Shown: piece after piece, positions 2,344 through 14,109 of the stretch
Layout: every line of letters starts with the position of its first letter
Numbering within the stretch: the first letter of the stretch is position 1
Assembly: GCA_016207515.1 (NCBI GenBank)
Contig: JACQPN010000002.1
Coordinates: forward strand, 12,350 to 76,349
Length of the DNA stretch: 64,000 nt
From: Methanobacteriota archaeon
Lineage (GTDB): Archaea; Thermoplasmatota; SW-10-69-26; JACQPN01
Direction: 5' to 3'
Made by a program: the position numbers and the translations under genes
The notes under the pieces: generated by a model
Database searches by the model: none
What the model saw: the letters and a program-made list of their open reading frames with translations, nothing else
What the model was told of the DNA's origin: nothing

Positions 2344-2416
2344 CCCCTTCGCGGCACGCCCTGTTGGAATTTGCGGCCGCCGCCCATATATACGCGCGAT
2401 GCCCGTTCCCGGCCGC

Positions 2417-2866
2417 ATGGACCGCACGCGCGTCGGATTCGCCATCGTCGGAGTCGCGCCGCTCCTCTGGGTCGCCGTGAACGTGATGCGAGGCGCTTTC
2501 GAGACGCGTCTCATGCTGGCGCTCCTCATCGGCGCGGTCGGTGCCTTCGTTGCGGCTTGGCGCCATCCCGAGAGACCGACCGTGGCCGCCGCGGGCCTTG
2601 GCGCCGTGGCGCTTAGCATCCTCCTCTTCTACGATCGGGGGATTTTCCTGACCGGCATCGCCTCCGTCGCTGGAGGTCTAGTGGCCGTCGGCGCCGCCGT
2701 GACGGCGGTCGGGCTAGCGCGCTCCACGCGTAGGTTACGACTTGGCGGCGCCGTCGTGGCCGCGTTCGGCGCCCTCGTGTGGATTGCGACGGACGACCTC
2801 GCGTGGCAGCCTGGTAACGTCGCGGCGGCCATAGGATGGATCGTGGTGGCGGCTGAAGCGCGATGA
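2417..2866 (+). CDS. hypothetical integral membrane protein (4 predicted TM helices)
   Basis: Hydrophobic ORF in frame of 2228..2866; TATA-like catatatac at 2385-2393 sits ~28 nt upstream of ATG 2417, suggesting a leaderless start (ATG 2399 also possible). Confidence 0.5.
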   Translation: MDRTRVGFAIVGVAPLLWVAVNVMRGAFETRLMLALLIGAVGAFVAAWRHPERPTVAAAGLGAVALSILLFYDRGIFLTGIASVAGGLVAVGAAVTAVGLARSTRRLRLGGAVVAAFGALVWIATDDLAWQPGNVAAAIGWIVVAAEAR

Positions 2867-3454: not shown

Positions 3455-5107
3455 TCACGGACACTTCACAAATGGGAAAAGTTCTCTCGACGAAGCAGGC
3501 ATGCCGGGTTCGCCACATGCATCGTTTGAGGCCTCGCTAAGGCCCACCACGTTTCTAGCCCTTACATGGTGGTAGAATACGTTATCTGGCGTAAATGTAA
3601 GATCAAAGGAAATGGCTCCGGCGTTGCTATTGGTTGCTATCAGGCTCGTGTTGTACGTTGTTATGGAAGGCCCAACGCTCCCGATGAGGATCTCATTTCC
3701 GTCACCTCCGATTCGATAAATCCGGTAGCCCAGGAGACCCACGCCTCCCGTGGCATTTGGGGCCGCCCAGGATAGGGTGATTTGAGAAATGCTTGTCGAC
3801 GCCAAGGCTGGCCCTTGTCCAAATGCGACGGGCGTTGCCGTCAAGTTCCATGGTTCTGAGGGCCGAACTGGTGCGACACCGTGGACCGTGGTTCCTGGCC
3901 CTGTCCCCTCCAAAGTGACCGCTCGCACCTCATAGTAATTCGACTCGCCATCGCCCAAATCCTTGTCGCGGTAGGACAACGTGGTGCCGATATCCGCGAG
4001 AAGCGTCATCGCGTCCGGCGAGGAGCCTCGAAAGATGTGGTAGCCGGTGATTGCATGATTGTGACGGAGGGGCTCCTGCCAGGAGAGACTGACTTCCCCT
4101 CGACCAGAGCCTGTTTTCGCAGACAGATTTCCCACGGGATCCAAAGCCTGGTTTGCGGGATCGTACACAACGATATCCCTCAGGCGTTGGTACGCGTCGT
4201 TCCCACCAATTACATATGCGACGCCGTCGCCCCAAACCGCGCTCGTTAGGTCCACGGCGCGTGGCAAACGATCATTCGTCAAGCTGACGAGTCCGGTACT
4301 TGGATCGAACCGCAACACGTCCCACAAATGTGACCCTGTGCCATTCCCTCCGAAAACCAATGCCTCCGTTCCCGTCCACACGCCGCTAATGTGCCGGCGA
4401 CCAGAGGGAAGGTGGCTCGACAAACGTTCAACAGCGCCACTCGATGGTTCGAACCTGATGATTGTTGCCACGGGCCCAATCGCGTCTTGGCCGCCAAGCA
4501 TGTACGCGTATTGACCGTCCCAAACCGTTGCTCCGAAATCGTTCCCCTCGGGCAAGGTTGACGAGAGTGTGACGACCGTGCTGGTATCCGGGTCGTACCT
4601 CAGTATCGTAGGTTGCGGAACTCCGCCAACGTGGCCACCTAGGAGGTAGATGTATTGCCCATCCCAAAAAGCGCCCGCGCCGTAGGTCCGATTAGGAAGG
4701 CGAATGGGCACGAGAGTCAGAGAATCGGTCACTGGGTCGTACTGGAATATCTCGTCAAGAGGTCGGCCAAGCGTGGGCCCGTAGCCGCCAAGCACGAAGA
4801 TTTTTGAACCAGCGGTCACCACTGCAGGATACTCTATGCTGAATGGCAAATTGGTGGCCGTTGCACTCAAGCACCCGGGCGGCTCGAAATACCATATTCG
4901 CTGCATGATGCCACCGAAAACGTACGCGCGGCCGTCGAACCAAGCGGCCCCCGTTGCATCGTTCGGTAGCGGTAATTGGCATTCAGACAGAACCGTCGAG
5001 TCCGCTTTGCCGGTGGGCACAATCGCAAACGCGGCCTGGGCCACGACTATTACGACTATCCAAGTCGCTTGACGCATCCGTTTGGATTTCAAAGACGCCC
5101 CCTTCAC
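3455..5107 (-). CDS. secreted Kelch-repeat beta-propeller protein with two fibronectin type III-like domains
   Basis: 550 aa; N-terminal signal-like hydrophobic segment; repeated Kelch-like blades (..VFGG.., ..LLGG.., ..MLGG.., ..VIGG..) followed by two FN3-like segments. Confidence 0.78.
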   Translation of the reverse strand: MKGASLKSKRMRQATWIVVIVVAQAAFAIVPTGKADSTVLSECQLPLPNDATGAAWFDGRAYVFGGIMQRIWYFEPPGCLSATATNLPFSIEYPAVVTAGSKIFVLGGYGPTLGRPLDEIFQYDPVTDSLTLVPIRLPNRTYGAGAFWDGQYIYLLGGHVGGVPQPTILRYDPDTSTVVTLSSTLPEGNDFGATVWDGQYAYMLGGQDAIGPVATIIRFEPSSGAVERLSSHLPSGRRHISGVWTGTEALVFGGNGTGSHLWDVLRFDPSTGLVSLTNDRLPRAVDLTSAVWGDGVAYVIGGNDAYQRLRDIVVYDPANQALDPVGNLSAKTGSGRGEVSLSWQEPLRHNHAITGYHIFRGSSPDAMTLLADIGTTLSYRDKDLGDGESNYYEVRAVTLEGTGPGTTVHGVAPVRPSEPWNLTATPVAFGQGPALASTSISQITLSWAAPNATGGVGLLGYRIYRIGGDGNEILIGSVGPSITTYNTSLIATNSNAGAISFDLTFTPDNVFYHHVRARNVVGLSEASNDACGEPGMPASSRELFPFVKCP

Positions 5108-9445: not shown

Positions 9446-10765
9446 ATGATCGACCTTTCGAAGCGCCGCTACTCGCTCGCGATAAGTCCCGCCGACGACG
9501 GCAAGGAGGCCGTGGTCGCCGGTTGGATCCACGAGTCGCGCGACCTCGGCGGCATCGCGTTCATCATCCTGCGCGACCGGGAGGGGACGCTCCAGGTCGT
9601 GCTTCCGAAGAAAAAGATCGAGAAGCAGCTGCTCGACCAACTGTTGGGCATCAACCGCGAATCGGTGATCGCGATCCGCGGGAGCGTGAAAGCCTCGCCT
9701 CAAGCGCGTAACGGTTATGAGATATTCCCGCTCGAAGTAGAGGTGCTTTCCCGGGCGGCGGCCCCACTGCCTCTTCCCGTGGCGGACAAGGTGCATGCCG
9801 AGATCGACACGCGTCTCGACAACCGGTACATGGACCTCAGAAAGCCCGAGGTCGCGGCGATCTTCCACGTTCGTAGCGCGATGCTCCGGTCGGCCCATGC
9901 GTTCTTCGCCGAACGCGGTTTCACGGAGATCCATACGCCGAAGATGATCTCCGCCGCTTCCGAGGGCGGGACCGATCTTTTCCCCGTCGCCTATTTCGAG
10001 AAACAGGCGTTCCTTGCCCAATCGCCGCAACTCTACAAGCAGATGATGATGGCGACGGGCCTCGACCGGGTCTACGAGATCGCGTGGTACTTCCGCGCGG
10101 AGGAGCACAACACGCGTCGCCACCTCAACGAATCGACCGCCATCGACGTGGAGATGGCCTACGTCTCTAGCGAAGAGGACGTGATGGGCCTTCTGGAACG
10201 GCTTATCCAACGGATCTGGACGGACATCACGAAGAACGAGACAGCGGCGCTCGCGGCCGTCGGGGCGAAGCCCGTGGTGCCAACGTTGCCGTTCCCGCGC
10301 GTCACCTACGACGAGGCCATTCGACTCGTCAACGAGGCGGGGTTGAAGCTCGAATGGGGCGAGGACCTCGGCACCGAGGGCGAGAAGAAGCTCGGCGATC
10401 TCATGCTCGCGAAGGGGCACGAGTTCTACTTCATAAAGCATTACCCGGCAGCGGCGAAACCTTTCTACGCCTACGTGGAGGACGGGTCGCAGCTGTCTCG
10501 TTCGTTCGACCTCGACCACAAGGGACTCGAAGTCACGAGTGGGGCCCAACGGCAGCACGATTCCGACAAACTCGTGAAGCGATTGGAGGAGAAGGGCCTG
10601 AATCCGAAGGATTTCGAGGCGTACTTGTCCGCATTCCGTTACGGCATGCCGCCGCACGGCGGGTTCGGGTTGGGGATCGAACGTCTGGTGATGGAACTTC
10701 TTGGGGTCGAGAACGTGCGGGAAGCGATACTGTTCCCGCGCGACAGGCAGAGATTGACCCCATAA
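9446..10765 (+). CDS. aspS: aspartate--tRNA ligase (archaeal/eukaryotic type)
   Basis: 439 aa; N-terminal OB anticodon-binding domain, class II motifs (FRAEE, GMPPHGGFGLGIERL). Confidence 0.95.
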   Translation: MIDLSKRRYSLAISPADDGKEAVVAGWIHESRDLGGIAFIILRDREGTLQVVLPKKKIEKQLLDQLLGINRESVIAIRGSVKASPQARNGYEIFPLEVEVLSRAAAPLPLPVADKVHAEIDTRLDNRYMDLRKPEVAAIFHVRSAMLRSAHAFFAERGFTEIHTPKMISAASEGGTDLFPVAYFEKQAFLAQSPQLYKQMMMATGLDRVYEIAWYFRAEEHNTRRHLNESTAIDVEMAYVSSEEDVMGLLERLIQRIWTDITKNETAALAAVGAKPVVPTLPFPRVTYDEAIRLVNEAGLKLEWGEDLGTEGEKKLGDLMLAKGHEFYFIKHYPAAAKPFYAYVEDGSQLSRSFDLDHKGLEVTSGAQRQHDSDKLVKRLEEKGLNPKDFEAYLSAFRYGMPPHGGFGLGIERLVMELLGVENVREAILFPRDRQRLTP

Positions 10766-10954
10766 GGGAGTTTTCGGCGTCGAATCCTGGCTTGAACGAC
10801 CCTCCATGATGAGAATCGACCACGTCTTGCGGGCGCCACCACGTTGGTCGCCTTCTGGGGGGCCCACGGGGCCTCAAGCGGCGGCTTTTTGTATTTGAGG
10901 GTTTCCCTAAACGCTCTTACGCGACGGGTTGCGAGATATGGTCGGTTGCCGCCA

Positions 10955-11485
10955 ATGCCGATCCAAAGGGATGCTACGCCTGTCGCAAGCACATTGTCGC
11001 CGCCGCAGCGGGAACTTCGGGCACGCGGGACGCTAGGTGAAGAGTTGCCTCTCGACTACTTCCGACTCTTTTCGGATAGCCTGGTCACGGACCTTCACAC
11101 TTTGGAGGACGATGCCGTCATCGAGGACCATCTGTTCACCGCGGGCAAACGCGCCGGCGACGTGTTCTCGCGCGTGGTCTCCAAGAACACCATCCACCTT
11201 CCGAAGAAACTGGCCGTCCTTTCCGAGGCCCTATACGATTTCAAGGTGGGGATAGCGAGTTTCAGGATCCAACCTGGCTACATCCGCTTTACGATAACGG
11301 AGTGCGTACACTGCGCTGGCGCGAAACCTTCTGGCCGGGCTTTGTGCCGTTTCGAGGCGGGCATCGTCGCCGGGGCGTTGGAGAGTTTCGTCGAGCGTGA
11401 GATCGACGGTGCTTCCGTCACCGAGACCAAGTGCTGGGGGCTCGGGGACGACCGGTGCGAGTTCACGGTCGCGATGCCTGTGTGA
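10955..11485 (+). CDS. V4R domain-containing protein
   Basis: C-terminal Cys-containing V4R-like segment (CVHCAGAK...CRFEAGIVAGALES...TETKCWGLGDDRCEF); start uncertain. Confidence 0.65.
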   Translation: MPIQRDATPVASTLSPPQRELRARGTLGEELPLDYFRLFSDSLVTDLHTLEDDAVIEDHLFTAGKRAGDVFSRVVSKNTIHLPKKLAVLSEALYDFKVGIASFRIQPGYIRFTITECVHCAGAKPSGRALCRFEAGIVAGALESFVEREIDGASVTETKCWGLGDDRCEFTVAMPV

Positions 11486-11814
11486 GTTTGCCGCGGACCG
11501 TGACACGCGTTGAGTTCCCCTGCCGTGCCAGGGCCGCCACGTCCGTTCCTTCTCGTCGAGGGTCCGGGTCCGCGATGTGAGCGGGGCGCCATGCGGTTTC
11601 TCGGCCGATTCTCCGTTTTTGTGGAACGCCTTTTGACAGACCTGAACCGGTCCTAATCACGGTTGAGGCTCTAAGAAACCGTCTGTCGGGAAACCGGCTT
11701 CCGACCGGCGGCGTGCCGAAAAAAGCGCCCGTATCTCGAATAGGGTCTGAGGAAATTGTATAAATAATCCAAAATCAACGGACCAGCACCGCACGACGCG
11801 GTGGAGGCTGAAAC

Positions 11815-12042
11815 ATGCGACCAAAACACAACCGATTGGAATCCGTCTTGGAGGCAAGCGAGGCACGGTTCGAATCGGGCGAACACCTGGAGGCGCCCGA
11901 AGCGCCGAAAGAGGCAGCGAACGTGGAACACAGGATCCGGTCCGTCGACTCGATCGCCCGCACGATGAGCATCATCAACAGGCACCCGATGCACGTGAAG
12001 GGTGGGTTCGCGGAAGGCACAGACGCCTGGAACAACGCGTAA
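11815..12042 (+). CDS. hypothetical small hydrophilic protein
   Basis: 75 aa; ATG ~50 nt downstream of TATA-like gtataaataatcc (11758-11770); its last codons lie inside the first copy of the tandem repeat. Confidence 0.35.
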   Translation: MRPKHNRLESVLEASEARFESGEHLEAPEAPKEAANVEHRIRSVDSIARTMSIINRHPMHVKGGFAEGTDAWNNA

Positions 12043-12264
12043 GGGGGACCGAGGGCCCGGGAGGGCACGAGGTCGCCCACTTTGGATGCACCCTTTGGCC
12101 CTGGCGCAAACAACTGTTTGCGCGGGGCCGCGCGCACGCCCGGCGTGCGCCGCGGTAAAGGGTGCTGGAGCAACGCGTAGGGGGGACCGAGGGCCCGGGA
12201 GGGCACGAGGTCGCCCACTTTGGATGCACCCTTTTGTAAAGGGTGCTGGAGCAACGCGTGGCGC
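12027..12264 (+). repeat. tandem direct repeat (two full ~70-bp copies plus a partial third) with GC-rich hairpins
   Basis: ctgga(a/g)caacgcgt(a)gggggaccgagggcccgggagggcacgaggtcgcccactttggatgcaccctt at ~12027 and ~12165, partial copy at 12245; palindromes gcgcaaaca-ac-tgtttgcgc and gcgcacg-cccgg-cgtgcgc between copies. Confidence 0.8.
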
Positions 12265-12585
12265 GAAAAAATCCCTGCGAAAACCAACGTCCGAGGCGAA
12301 GAAGGAGAGGCAAACGGGGGCGGGGCATTCTTTCCGCATCAGTGGAACGGGTCGCCCCGCGCGTCCGGCCGCCGGGCATGCACCGGATGCCGGGGCGCAC
12401 GGGGGTTTTCCATGGAGGCAGCGCAATCTTTTGAACGGCCCCGGGCAAATGCCAATGACGATGTTTCCAAACGTGCGCTAAAGCAGGGTTTAATACCCGT
12501 GGAGTCTCCATTATACGCCGCGGGAGCGGAGGACAACGGGAAGCCTTACGTTTTTCCGACCGCGCGGACATGAGGAAATGACTCG

Positions 12586-14109
12586 ATGGATGGGCTGAAG
12601 CTCGTCGTTAGGCTTTTCGACATCGACCTCGGCAAGTACCAGGTGATCCTCCACGAGAAGGACGCCGAGGAGCTCGGCATCCACTCGCAGGACCGCGTGA
12701 AGATATCGCGCTCCGACGAGACGATCACCGCGATAGTCGACACGACCGATTCCTTCATCGAACGCGGGCAGGTCGGGGTCTTTTTCGAGGTCCAGCAAAG
12801 GCTCGAACTGACGGAAGGCAACACGCTCAAGGTCGTCCCCGCCGACAAACCGGCGAGTGTCGCTTACATCAGGAAGAAGATGGAGGGGAAGGACCTCTCG
12901 CGCGAAGAGATAGACACGCTCATCCGCGATGTGGTCGACGGCAGCCTAACAGACATCGAACTCGCGGCCTACGTCACGAGCATCCAGATCCGTGACATGA
13001 ACCTGCGGGAGGTCGAGGACCTCACGAACGCGATGGTGAAGTACGGCGAGGTGATCGATTTCGAGGGCGCCGAGATCTTCGACAAGCACTCTATAGGTGG
13101 CGTGCCGGGGAACAAGATCTCGCTGCTCGTCGTCCCCATTGTGGCGGCGGCGGGGCTGCTCATCCCGAAGACCTCGTCGAGGGCGGTGACGGGTGCGGCG
13201 GGAACGGCCGACATCATGGAACTCTTTTGCAACGTGCGCCTCTCGGCCGAGGAGATCAAACGCATCACGCTCGAAGTCGGAGGTGTCCTCTCATGGGGCG
13301 GTGGCGTGAACCTCGCCCCTGCGGACGACATCATCATACGCGTCGAGCATCCCCTTTCGCTCGATCCCCGCTCGCAGCTCCTTGCGAGTGTCATGGCGAA
13401 GAAGAAGGCGGTCGGGGCGCGTAACGTCGTCATCGACCTTCCGATGGGCGAGGGCACGAAGATCGTCCAACAGGACGAGGCCCGTAAGATCGCCCGCGAC
13501 TTCATCGACCTCGGCGAGAGGCTTGGGATGAAGGTGGAATGCGCGATAACGTACGGTGGGCAACCGGTGGGAAAGGCCATCGGCCCTGCGCTCGAGGCGA
13601 ACGAGGCGTTGCTCGCGCTCAACAACGGCGACGCGCCGCAATCGCTCGTCGAGAAATCCGTCGGCATCGCCGGGATGCTCCTGGAGATGGGCGGCGTCAC
13701 GGCGCGCGGCAAGGGCCGCAGACTCGCCCAAGAGATCCTTGAAAGCGGGAAGGCGCTGCAGAAGTTCGACGAGATAGTCATAGCGCAGGGTGGCATGAAA
13801 CCGAAGGAGCAGGAGATCGGCCGTCACTCGGCCTCGATCCTCGCTCCAAACGGCGGTTACCTCACGGGCGTTGCGAACCGCCGGCTCGTCCACATCGCGA
13901 GGCTCGCCGGCGCCCCAAAAGACGGTGGCGCGGGCGTCGTCCTTCATAAGAAGCGCGGTGACAAGGTGGACACGGAGGAGCCGCTTCTGACGATCTATTC
14001 GAGTTCGGAGTACAACCTCAAGACGGCGCTCGCGGAGGCGAAGCGGGGCGTGCCGGTCACGATCGAAGGCATGGTTCTCCAACGCGTGCCGGACTTCCAG
14101 GAGTTTTGA
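12586..14109 (+). CDS. AMP phosphorylase (archaeal thymidine phosphorylase-family enzyme with N-terminal extension)
   Basis: 507 aa; nucleoside phosphorylase family II motifs (DKHSIGGVPGNKISL, SSRAVTGAAGTAD) plus the ~80-aa N-terminal domain typical of archaeal AMPpase. Confidence 0.88.
   Translation: MDGLKLVVRLFDIDLGKYQVILHEKDAEELGIHSQDRVKISRSDETITAIVDTTDSFIERGQVGVFFEVQQRLELTEGNTLKVVPADKPASVAYIRKKMEGKDLSREEIDTLIRDVVDGSLTDIELAAYVTSIQIRDMNLREVEDLTNAMVKYGEVIDFEGAEIFDKHSIGGVPGNKISLLVVPIVAAAGLLIPKTSSRAVTGAAGTADIMELFCNVRLSAEEIKRITLEVGGVLSWGGGVNLAPADDIIIRVEHPLSLDPRSQLLASVMAKKKAVGARNVVIDLPMGEGTKIVQQDEARKIARDFIDLGERLGMKVECAITYGGQPVGKAIGPALEANEALLALNNGDAPQSLVEKSVGIAGMLLEMGGVTARGKGRRLAQEILESGKALQKFDEIVIAQGGMKPKEQEIGRHSASILAPNGGYLTGVANRRLVHIARLAGAPKDGGAGVVLHKKRGDKVDTEEPLLTIYSSSEYNLKTALAEAKRGVPVTIEGMVLQRVPDFQEF

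Follow-up and report, generated by a model that had tools for sequence, protein, structure and literature searches.

Tandem-duplication footprint at the 3' end of a conserved small gene upstream of AMP phosphorylase in an uncultured Thermoplasmatota archaeon

Upstream of the AMP phosphorylase gene, the 64-kb stretch of DNA analysed here (further referred to as the window) carries a sequence unit of about 70 bp twice in full, together with several strong hairpins. Three readings were offered for this structure in the original prediction, made from the sequence alone: a structured non-coding RNA, a duplicated terminator or attenuator, and a recombination footprint. Which of them fits the locus is the question of this study. 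The recombination-footprint reading is strongly supported by three observations: a single-unit state in a related contig, homology of the units to the 3' end of the adjacent ORF, and a hybrid-like middle 14-nt repeat. The feature is an ordinary tandem-duplication footprint with an unusually tidy history, and not a new RNA gene or a mobile element. Judging from sequence comparison, it is probably a small evolving tandem array, in which the 3' end of a conserved small gene was duplicated together with its 3'-UTR hairpin.

The repeat lies between two genes of the plus strand. The AMP phosphorylase gene (12586–14109; Pfam PF02885, PF00591 and PF07831) has homologues of that name; the best non-self matches of its product are about 70% identical and come from uncultured Thermoplasmatota. 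A gene for an MgtC/DUF4010 protein follows on the minus strand. On the other side is a small conserved ORF (11815–12042, 75 aa, locus tag HY556_00635) with the conserved core starting near the GTG at 11923, preceded by genes for a V4R-domain protein (10844/10955–11485) and AspRS (9446–10765). The repeat had been placed in a 1.1-kb intergenic region. This figure is too long because it includes the small ORF, a real conserved gene; the true gap between the small-ORF stop and the AMP phosphorylase start is 543 nt. We consider the small ORF a real gene given its synteny and its alignment with relatives, where homologous proteins of about 50 aa are encoded between AspRS and AMP phosphorylase. The order AspRS, small ORF (50–52 aa), AMP phosphorylase is preserved in three uncultured Thermoplasmatota (L006, ORF at 4722–4874; L007, 1316–1468; L008, 1764–1922), and in the alignment of these proteins with that of the window the residues M, S, P, H, K and G of the core motif are invariant. 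The space after the small ORF is just 125–160 nt in L006 and L008.

The family of the small protein comprises 22 members, all unannotated, and yielded no match in Pfam or NCBIfam. Its members are about 50 aa long and have the core motif V.SYVTQMSLVKNCPSHIKGAY. The block 11746–11766 (plus strand, TCTGAGGAAATTGTATAAATA), a putative promoter block upstream of the window ORF, is TATA-like and forms a 21-nt perfect run between the window and the related contig L009 described below; it is a putative archaeal TATA box. The V4R gene (10844–11485 in the window, 259–789 in contig L013), with a weak MsvR-like match, follows AspRS and precedes the small ORF both in the window and in the organism of L009 and L013, and is missing from this position in L006 and L008. 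In L007, a 175-aa secreted-looking ORF is instead found after the small gene and before that for AMP phosphorylase. Gene gain appears to concentrate in this spacer.

Contig L009 is a 1013-nt Logan contig from a related uncultured Thermoplasmatota archaeon, containing the small gene (77–304) and the start of a close AMP phosphorylase homologue. Its small protein (P0142) is 57% identical to that of the window over all 75 aa, with the C-terminal half nearly identical, and both versions share a 36-aa N-terminal extension. The V4R gene found in the same sample (L013) has 83% identity. Further relatives were searched for with the V4R protein, which gave only this contig, and with AMP phosphorylase, which gave only a 47%-identical locus. 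The original prediction proposed comparison with the syntenic region in related genomes. L009 carries one unit only, between the same two genes; the element is absent from L006–L008. The order of elements in L009 is the ORF end (...GGCACCGAAGCTTGGAAGAACGCTTGA), a diverged hairpin A, the sequence CTTTGGATGCACCCTTTTGTAAAGGGTGC, identical to hairpin B of the window, and GGCACGGAAGCCTGGAAGAACGCCTAG. The last of these matches L009's own ORF end at 22 of 27 positions. Despite a divergence of about 29% and a 3-nt loop indel, hairpin A in L009 has a similar three-helix architecture. Positions 12218–12246 of the window are identical to L009 at 29 of 29 positions. Only one perfect run in the 1.2-kb comparison exceeds this, 47 nt within the small ORF, and the maximum within the AMP phosphorylase coding region is 21 nt. 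Beyond the array, 12260–12470 is unalignable with L009 and contains indels. The 47-nt run (11950–11996) spans about 15 synonymous sites, which suggests a nucleotide-level constraint (RNA structure or an antisense transcript) or a recent conversion.

The copy structure was largely as predicted. The unit occurs twice in full, as U1 (12027–12096) and U2 (12165–12234), which agree at 68 of 70 positions; the direct-repeat search of the window aligned them without gaps at 97% identity and a spacing of 138 nt. The same search found a 24-nt exact repeat (12155–12178 and 12236–12259, 24/24) at a spacing of 81 nt, whose second copy consists of the spacer S (GTAAAGGGTG) and the first 14 nt of the unit (12246–12259). 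The third, partial copy is thus present, and the range claimed for it (12245–12264) was slightly too long. U1 begins within the last five codons of the small ORF and holds its end, again as predicted. The initial 14 nt of the unit recur on the plus strand as the direct repeats DR1 (12027–12040, CTGGAACAACGCGT), DR2 (12165–12178) and DR3 (12246–12259), the latter two both CTGGAGCAACGCGT. The layout of the locus can be written as P / U1 / I / S / U2 / T / S / DR3 / Q, where I is a 58-nt insert (12097–12154). A 34-nt core occurs twice in the window and was found in none of 100 shuffles, and the repeat search detected no comparable local direct repeat elsewhere in the 64 kb.

As read from the sequence, the locus is a tandem array of three units on the plus strand, copies 0, 1 and 2. 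Copy 0 (11988–12084, delimited by local alignment) is the functional one and comprises the final 55 nt of the ORF, GATGCAC...TAA, followed by hairpin A and CTTTG. Copy 1 (12085–12222) is 138 nt long and combines an 80-nt unit with the 58-nt insert; it is supported by the repeat search, the alignment and R1, a covariance model built from the units. Copy 2 (12223–12259; repeat search and alignment) is partial and reads GATGCAC, CCTTTT, GTAAAGGGTG and CTGGAGCAACGCGT. Tandem Repeats Finder gave no report at the array because the 58-nt insert breaks the period. Directly past the array is an A6 run (12266–12271; T6 on the minus strand), not kept in L009; to any transcript of the minus strand it would present an archaeal T-stretch terminator.

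Hairpin A, an imperfect hairpin of 12 bp, is predicted by folding at 12043–12078 in the first copy and at 12181–12216 in the second (both plus strand). Hairpin B is intact at 12226–12246 (plus strand), where the inverted match GCACCCTTT / AAAGGGTGC, correctly noted before, provides the arms of a perfect 9-bp stem with the 3-nt loop TGT. In the first copy (12088–12165, plus strand) the arms 12088–12096 and 12157–12165 are predicted to close a three-way junction around the 58-nt insert. These 79 nt fold with −56.2 kcal/mol (z = −5.4), and R1 aligns them as hairpin B with a 59-nt loop insertion. The insert itself is GC-rich and made up of hairpins H1 (12097–12129) and H2 (12130–12154), within which the two GC-rich hairpins reported between the copies were recovered at 12104–12123 and 12132–12150, each with a perfect 8-bp stem. 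It is specific to the window, being absent from U2 and L009, and neither a second copy nor a related sequence was found in the 64-kb window. The number of perfect hairpins of at least 8 bp in the window (11) falls within the range in shuffles (4–13); three of the 11 cluster within 143 nt (12104–12246). The folding energy of the region corresponds to z-scores of −4.6 (plus strand) and −4.8 (minus strand). Two other insertions specific to the window relative to L009 were observed in the same spacer. The one at about 12343–12388 is GC-rich, hairpin-prone and similar in composition to the 58-nt insert (12128–12148 vs 12357–12377, 76%); the one at about 12444–12471 is not GC-rich.

Local alignment revealed the source of the unit: from GATGCAC at position 11988 onwards, the final ~55 nt of the ORF have a homologue in the downstream copy. 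The ORF reads GATGCAC / GTGAAGGGTG / GGTTCGCGGAAGGCACAGACGC / CTGGAACAACGCGTAA, and the copy reads GATGCAC + CCTTTT + GTAAAGGGTG / (deletion) / CTGGAGCAACGCGT. Within L009, the alignment of the ORF 3' end with the downstream copy scores 47.5, above all 2000 shuffles. The same holds for the window ORF against the L009 copy (score 44), whereas the window ORF against 12218–12300 scores 29.0, matched by one of 2000 shuffles. Common to all three alignments are GATGCAC, the 6-nt gap and GTAAAGGGTG. The 6 nt were gained by the copy, since the wider protein family has no gap at that position. Hairpin B, by this comparison, is duplicated coding sequence whose perfect palindrome appears to have been completed by the 6-nt insertion.

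The relative age of the events follows from the differences between the copies. One U1/U2 difference (a at 12032, g at 12170) equals the pre-existing difference between DR1 and DR3; this accounts for one of the two, so that only one substitution in about 81 nt is new. The loop TTTTGTAAA is identical in U2 and L009, which marks the 58-nt insert as derived and later than the duplication. The 14-nt repeat in the middle has the appearance of a hybrid formed by crossover, in line with the inherited DR1/DR3 difference. Overall, near-identical copies stand head to tail, a lower-copy state exists in L009, and the copies come from adjacent native sequence. The repeat did not truncate the small gene, as both proteins stop at the same residue (AWNNA* in the window, AWKNA* in L009) and have the same length. 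Truncation of the small protein by an insertion was rejected on this ground.

The following history, in four steps, was read from sequence comparison; two independent lineages are available, and the order of events, as well as any selection, rests on one outgroup. A unit of about 97 nt, which begins with GATGCAC in the ORF, includes the stop codon and hairpin A and ends with CTTTG, would have been duplicated before the window and L009 lineages split; the final ~55 nt of the gene would thereby be present once more downstream, as non-coding sequence. This first duplication is placed before the split because it is common to both. Insertion of CCTTTT into the copy would then have turned GCAC/GTAAAGGGTG into the 9-bp palindrome of hairpin B, a change of the type produced by template switching at quasi-palindromes, and internal deletions would have shortened the copy by 22 nt in the window and 7 nt in L009. 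A further 81-nt unit, giving U1 and U2, may have been added very recently and solely in the lineage of the window, by slippage or unequal recombination between the 14-nt repeats CTGGARCAACGCGT; the crossover can be placed within CAACGCGT between misaligned DR copies. Finally, the 58-nt GC-rich double hairpin would have been inserted exactly in the hairpin B loop of the first unit.

Tandem duplication through unequal recombination or replication slippage between short direct repeats is a textbook mechanism. The locus resembles it in the head-to-tail near-identical copies, the hybrid middle repeat and the lower-copy relative, and differs in that a functional gene 3' end is part of the unit and that one copy gained a 58-nt insert. 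Perfection of quasi-palindromes by intramolecular template switching is known from Ripley-type mutations. The 6-nt insertion likewise turns an imperfect inverted repeat (GCAC...AAGGGTG) into a perfect 9-bp palindrome, but here the mechanism is suggested by its product only, and the event is ancient, being shared with L009.

Several other explanations have to be weighed against a duplicated gene end. The window comes from a metagenome-assembled genome, and short-read assemblies break exactly at the repeat, so that the duplication might be an artefact joining two strain haplotypes, with and without the 58-nt insert. In two runs, independent Logan contigs (k=31) that include the flanking genes are interrupted within the repeat, with L003 and L004 breaking off at 12072 and L001 beginning at 12205; the junctions of the insert, S and U2 are seen in the window assembly only. 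These break points are the last 31-mer with the U1-specific base 12042 and the first 31-mer with the U2-specific base 12235. As they coincide with copy-specific 31-mers, the identical 54-nt core has two left and two right contexts in these independent read sets. Moreover, the junction of S and U2 (GTAAAGGGTG/CTGGAGCAACGCGTAGGGGGG) should be impossible to obtain from haplotypes that both have the ORF flank left of the unit, and a de Bruijn assembler with k of about 21 or more would require the junction k-mer in the reads. We infer that the duplication is real and regard an artefact as the least probable of the explanations considered, barely credible. The unit, or at least the 58-nt insert, might also be a miniature mobile or REP-like palindromic element inserted with target duplication: direct repeats flank the unit, the insert consists of two GC-rich imperfect palindromes placed exactly in the hairpin loop, and other GC-rich insertions specific to the window lie nearby (~12343–12388). 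However, the 64-kb window has no second unit or insert copy, the core of hairpin A (an exact 24-mer) gave no matches in genome or metagenome contigs, the hairpin B pattern gave none in viral contigs, terminal inverted repeats are absent, and the supposed target duplication is 55 nt long and includes hairpin B itself. This origin is therefore very improbable. A MITE or IS-derived element was rejected as no other copy exists in the window or the scanned collections and the flanking repeat is 14–55 nt of gene sequence. The insert resembles bacterial REP/BIME elements in being a doublet of GC-rich imperfect palindromes downstream of a gene, and differs in being single-copy within the 64 kb examined and in having an archaeon as host; such elements are defined by many intergenic copies per genome. 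The locus is not CRISPR-like, as stated initially: a CRISPR has at least three repeats of 24–48 nt with unique spacers of similar length, and here there are 2.3 copies of an 81–138-nt unit with no unique spacers except one 58-nt insert. A diversity-generating retroelement (repeat of at least ~100 nt, adenine-specific mismatches, nearby reverse transcriptase) was discarded, given that the repeat includes non-coding hairpins and the mismatches within L009 are C/G and T/C.

It could further be argued that the unit is a functional structured RNA, either an ncRNA or a cis-regulatory 3'-UTR element, and that its duplication was adaptive. The very stable fold on both strands, the 29/29 conservation of hairpin B with its flank, and the hairpin A architecture retained in L009 speak for this. 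Nevertheless, the Rfam covariance search proposed in the original prediction gave no matches at gathering scores in the whole window; with E up to 10 on 11400–12700 the best overlapping match was RsmW with 20.1 bits against a cut-off of 52 bits. RNAalifold on the three units found no compensatory pairs, and the two lineages give no clean covariation. Model R1 recovered only U1, U2 and L009, with no more copies in the window or L005–L012, and the element is absent from L006–L008 and the rest of the window. In addition, hairpin B comes from duplicated coding sequence and the second unit is only about one substitution old. ARAGORN and the Rfam tRNA model detected no tRNA or tmRNA. With Rfam null and two genomes only, the structured-ncRNA claim gained no positive support, and we consider this reading improbable. 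Hairpin B might instead serve as a palindromic DNA operator (9-3-9) for a dimeric regulator, e.g. the neighbouring V4R/MsvR-like protein, for its palindrome is perfect and conserved in sequence including the loop, and the V4R-domain gene with its weak MsvR match is just upstream. Yet it lies about 230–420 nt from either promoter block, and the 58 nt that interrupt its first copy would abolish a double-stranded DNA site there. An operator is thus extremely improbable, and a duplicated gene end remains the preferred explanation of the array.

The terminator and attenuator parts of the original prediction fared differently. A separately conserved promoter-like block (12472–12521, plus strand, TTTAATAC / CCATTATAC) precedes the AMP phosphorylase gene downstream of the repeat and is kept in L009 amid unalignable spacer; hence the repeat is not the leader of this gene and is unlikely to act as its attenuator. 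Duplication of a terminator or 3'-UTR hairpin would be a plausible reading. The perfect conservation of hairpin B over 29 nt, exceeding any run in the AMP phosphorylase coding region, argues that it is under constraint. Hairpin B may be functional, most plausibly as a 3'-end or terminator hairpin of the small-gene transcript. In the proposed mechanism the array is non-coding, and hairpins A and B with short U-tracts form a putative 3'-end (termination or stabilising) module, which would insulate the small gene from the independently promoted AMP phosphorylase; the duplication would add a second module.

In the GC-rich archaeon Haloferax, T-stretches are the intergenic terminator motif, 503 mapped 3' ends have a hairpin upstream, and one hairpin put to the test ended 59% of transcripts; in several genes, termination at more than one site results in different 3'-UTR lengths (PMC7237163). 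The array resembles such archaeal 3'-end signals in that hairpins directly follow the stop codon and are followed by short T runs; the duplication would give consecutive candidate sites. The T runs here are only 3–4 nt long, an archaeal T-stretch terminator being taken as a run of about five or more T at a mapped transcript 3' end: T3 after hairpin A (12081–12083 and 12219–12221) and T4 (12232–12235) in the hairpin B loop. A bacterial-type intrinsic terminator, in which a T run comes immediately after a GC-rich hairpin, was rejected, since TGGAGCAAC follows hairpin B, the sequence behind H1 and H2 is GC-rich, and the host is an archaeon. Programmed recoding (read-through, frameshift or bypass) was rejected as well: relative to the ORF, the downstream copy lies in frame 0 in the window, but in L009 it is in frame +1 and followed by a stop. 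The same applies to a fusion ORF joining 11815 with 12260–12573, given that the downstream 'ORF' is not conserved in L009; it also has no Pfam or NCBIfam matches.

Not only the stem of hairpin B but also its loop and 5' flank are perfectly conserved, which points to a sequence-specific constraint beyond what a generic terminator needs. One may ask whether hairpin B (CTTTGGATGCACCCTTTTGTAAAGGGTGC) is a sequence-specific functional element that arose from duplicated coding sequence and could be recognised by a DNA-binding protein or by a factor for RNA processing or termination. We consider this rather unlikely. If true, selection would have preserved all 29 of 29 positions in two lineages between which the surrounding spacer cannot be aligned, and the likeness to a tRNA-Leu intron described next would hint at a recurrent recognised motif, not coincidence.

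The hairpin B pattern gave three matches in metagenomes (L010, L011 and L012), all in unrelated contexts, and none in viral contigs. L010 and L011 look bacterial, and the L012 match lies within a tRNA intron. As relatives of hairpin B all three were dismissed as convergent or chance matches, because the search pattern forces similarity. The L012 region (2383–2511, minus strand), on an unrelated archaeal metagenome contig, is an intron-containing tRNA-Leu with the anticodon loop CUUAG; in its intron of about 43 nt the hairpin with its flank matches the hairpin B region at 30 of 32 nt (GCACCCTTT..AAAGGGTGCATCCAAA, tRNA sense). The AT-rich intergenic regions L010 1196–1243 and L011 11413–11459 share AAAGTTCTTTGGATGCACCCTTTC...GAAAGGGTGC, and this recurrent hairpin has no Rfam match.

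The locus reveals no new RNA class, defence system or mobile element. It does draw attention to a conserved uncharacterised protein of about 50 aa, always encoded just 5' of AMP phosphorylase in this group of Thermoplasmatota. The array itself may serve as a worked example, in which the 3' end of a gene would have been duplicated, the spare copy reshaped into a perfect hairpin, the array re-expanded, and one loop supplied with a structured insert. In this way it illustrates, on a small scale, how archaeal coding DNA can give rise to structured modules of the 3'-UTR or terminator type.
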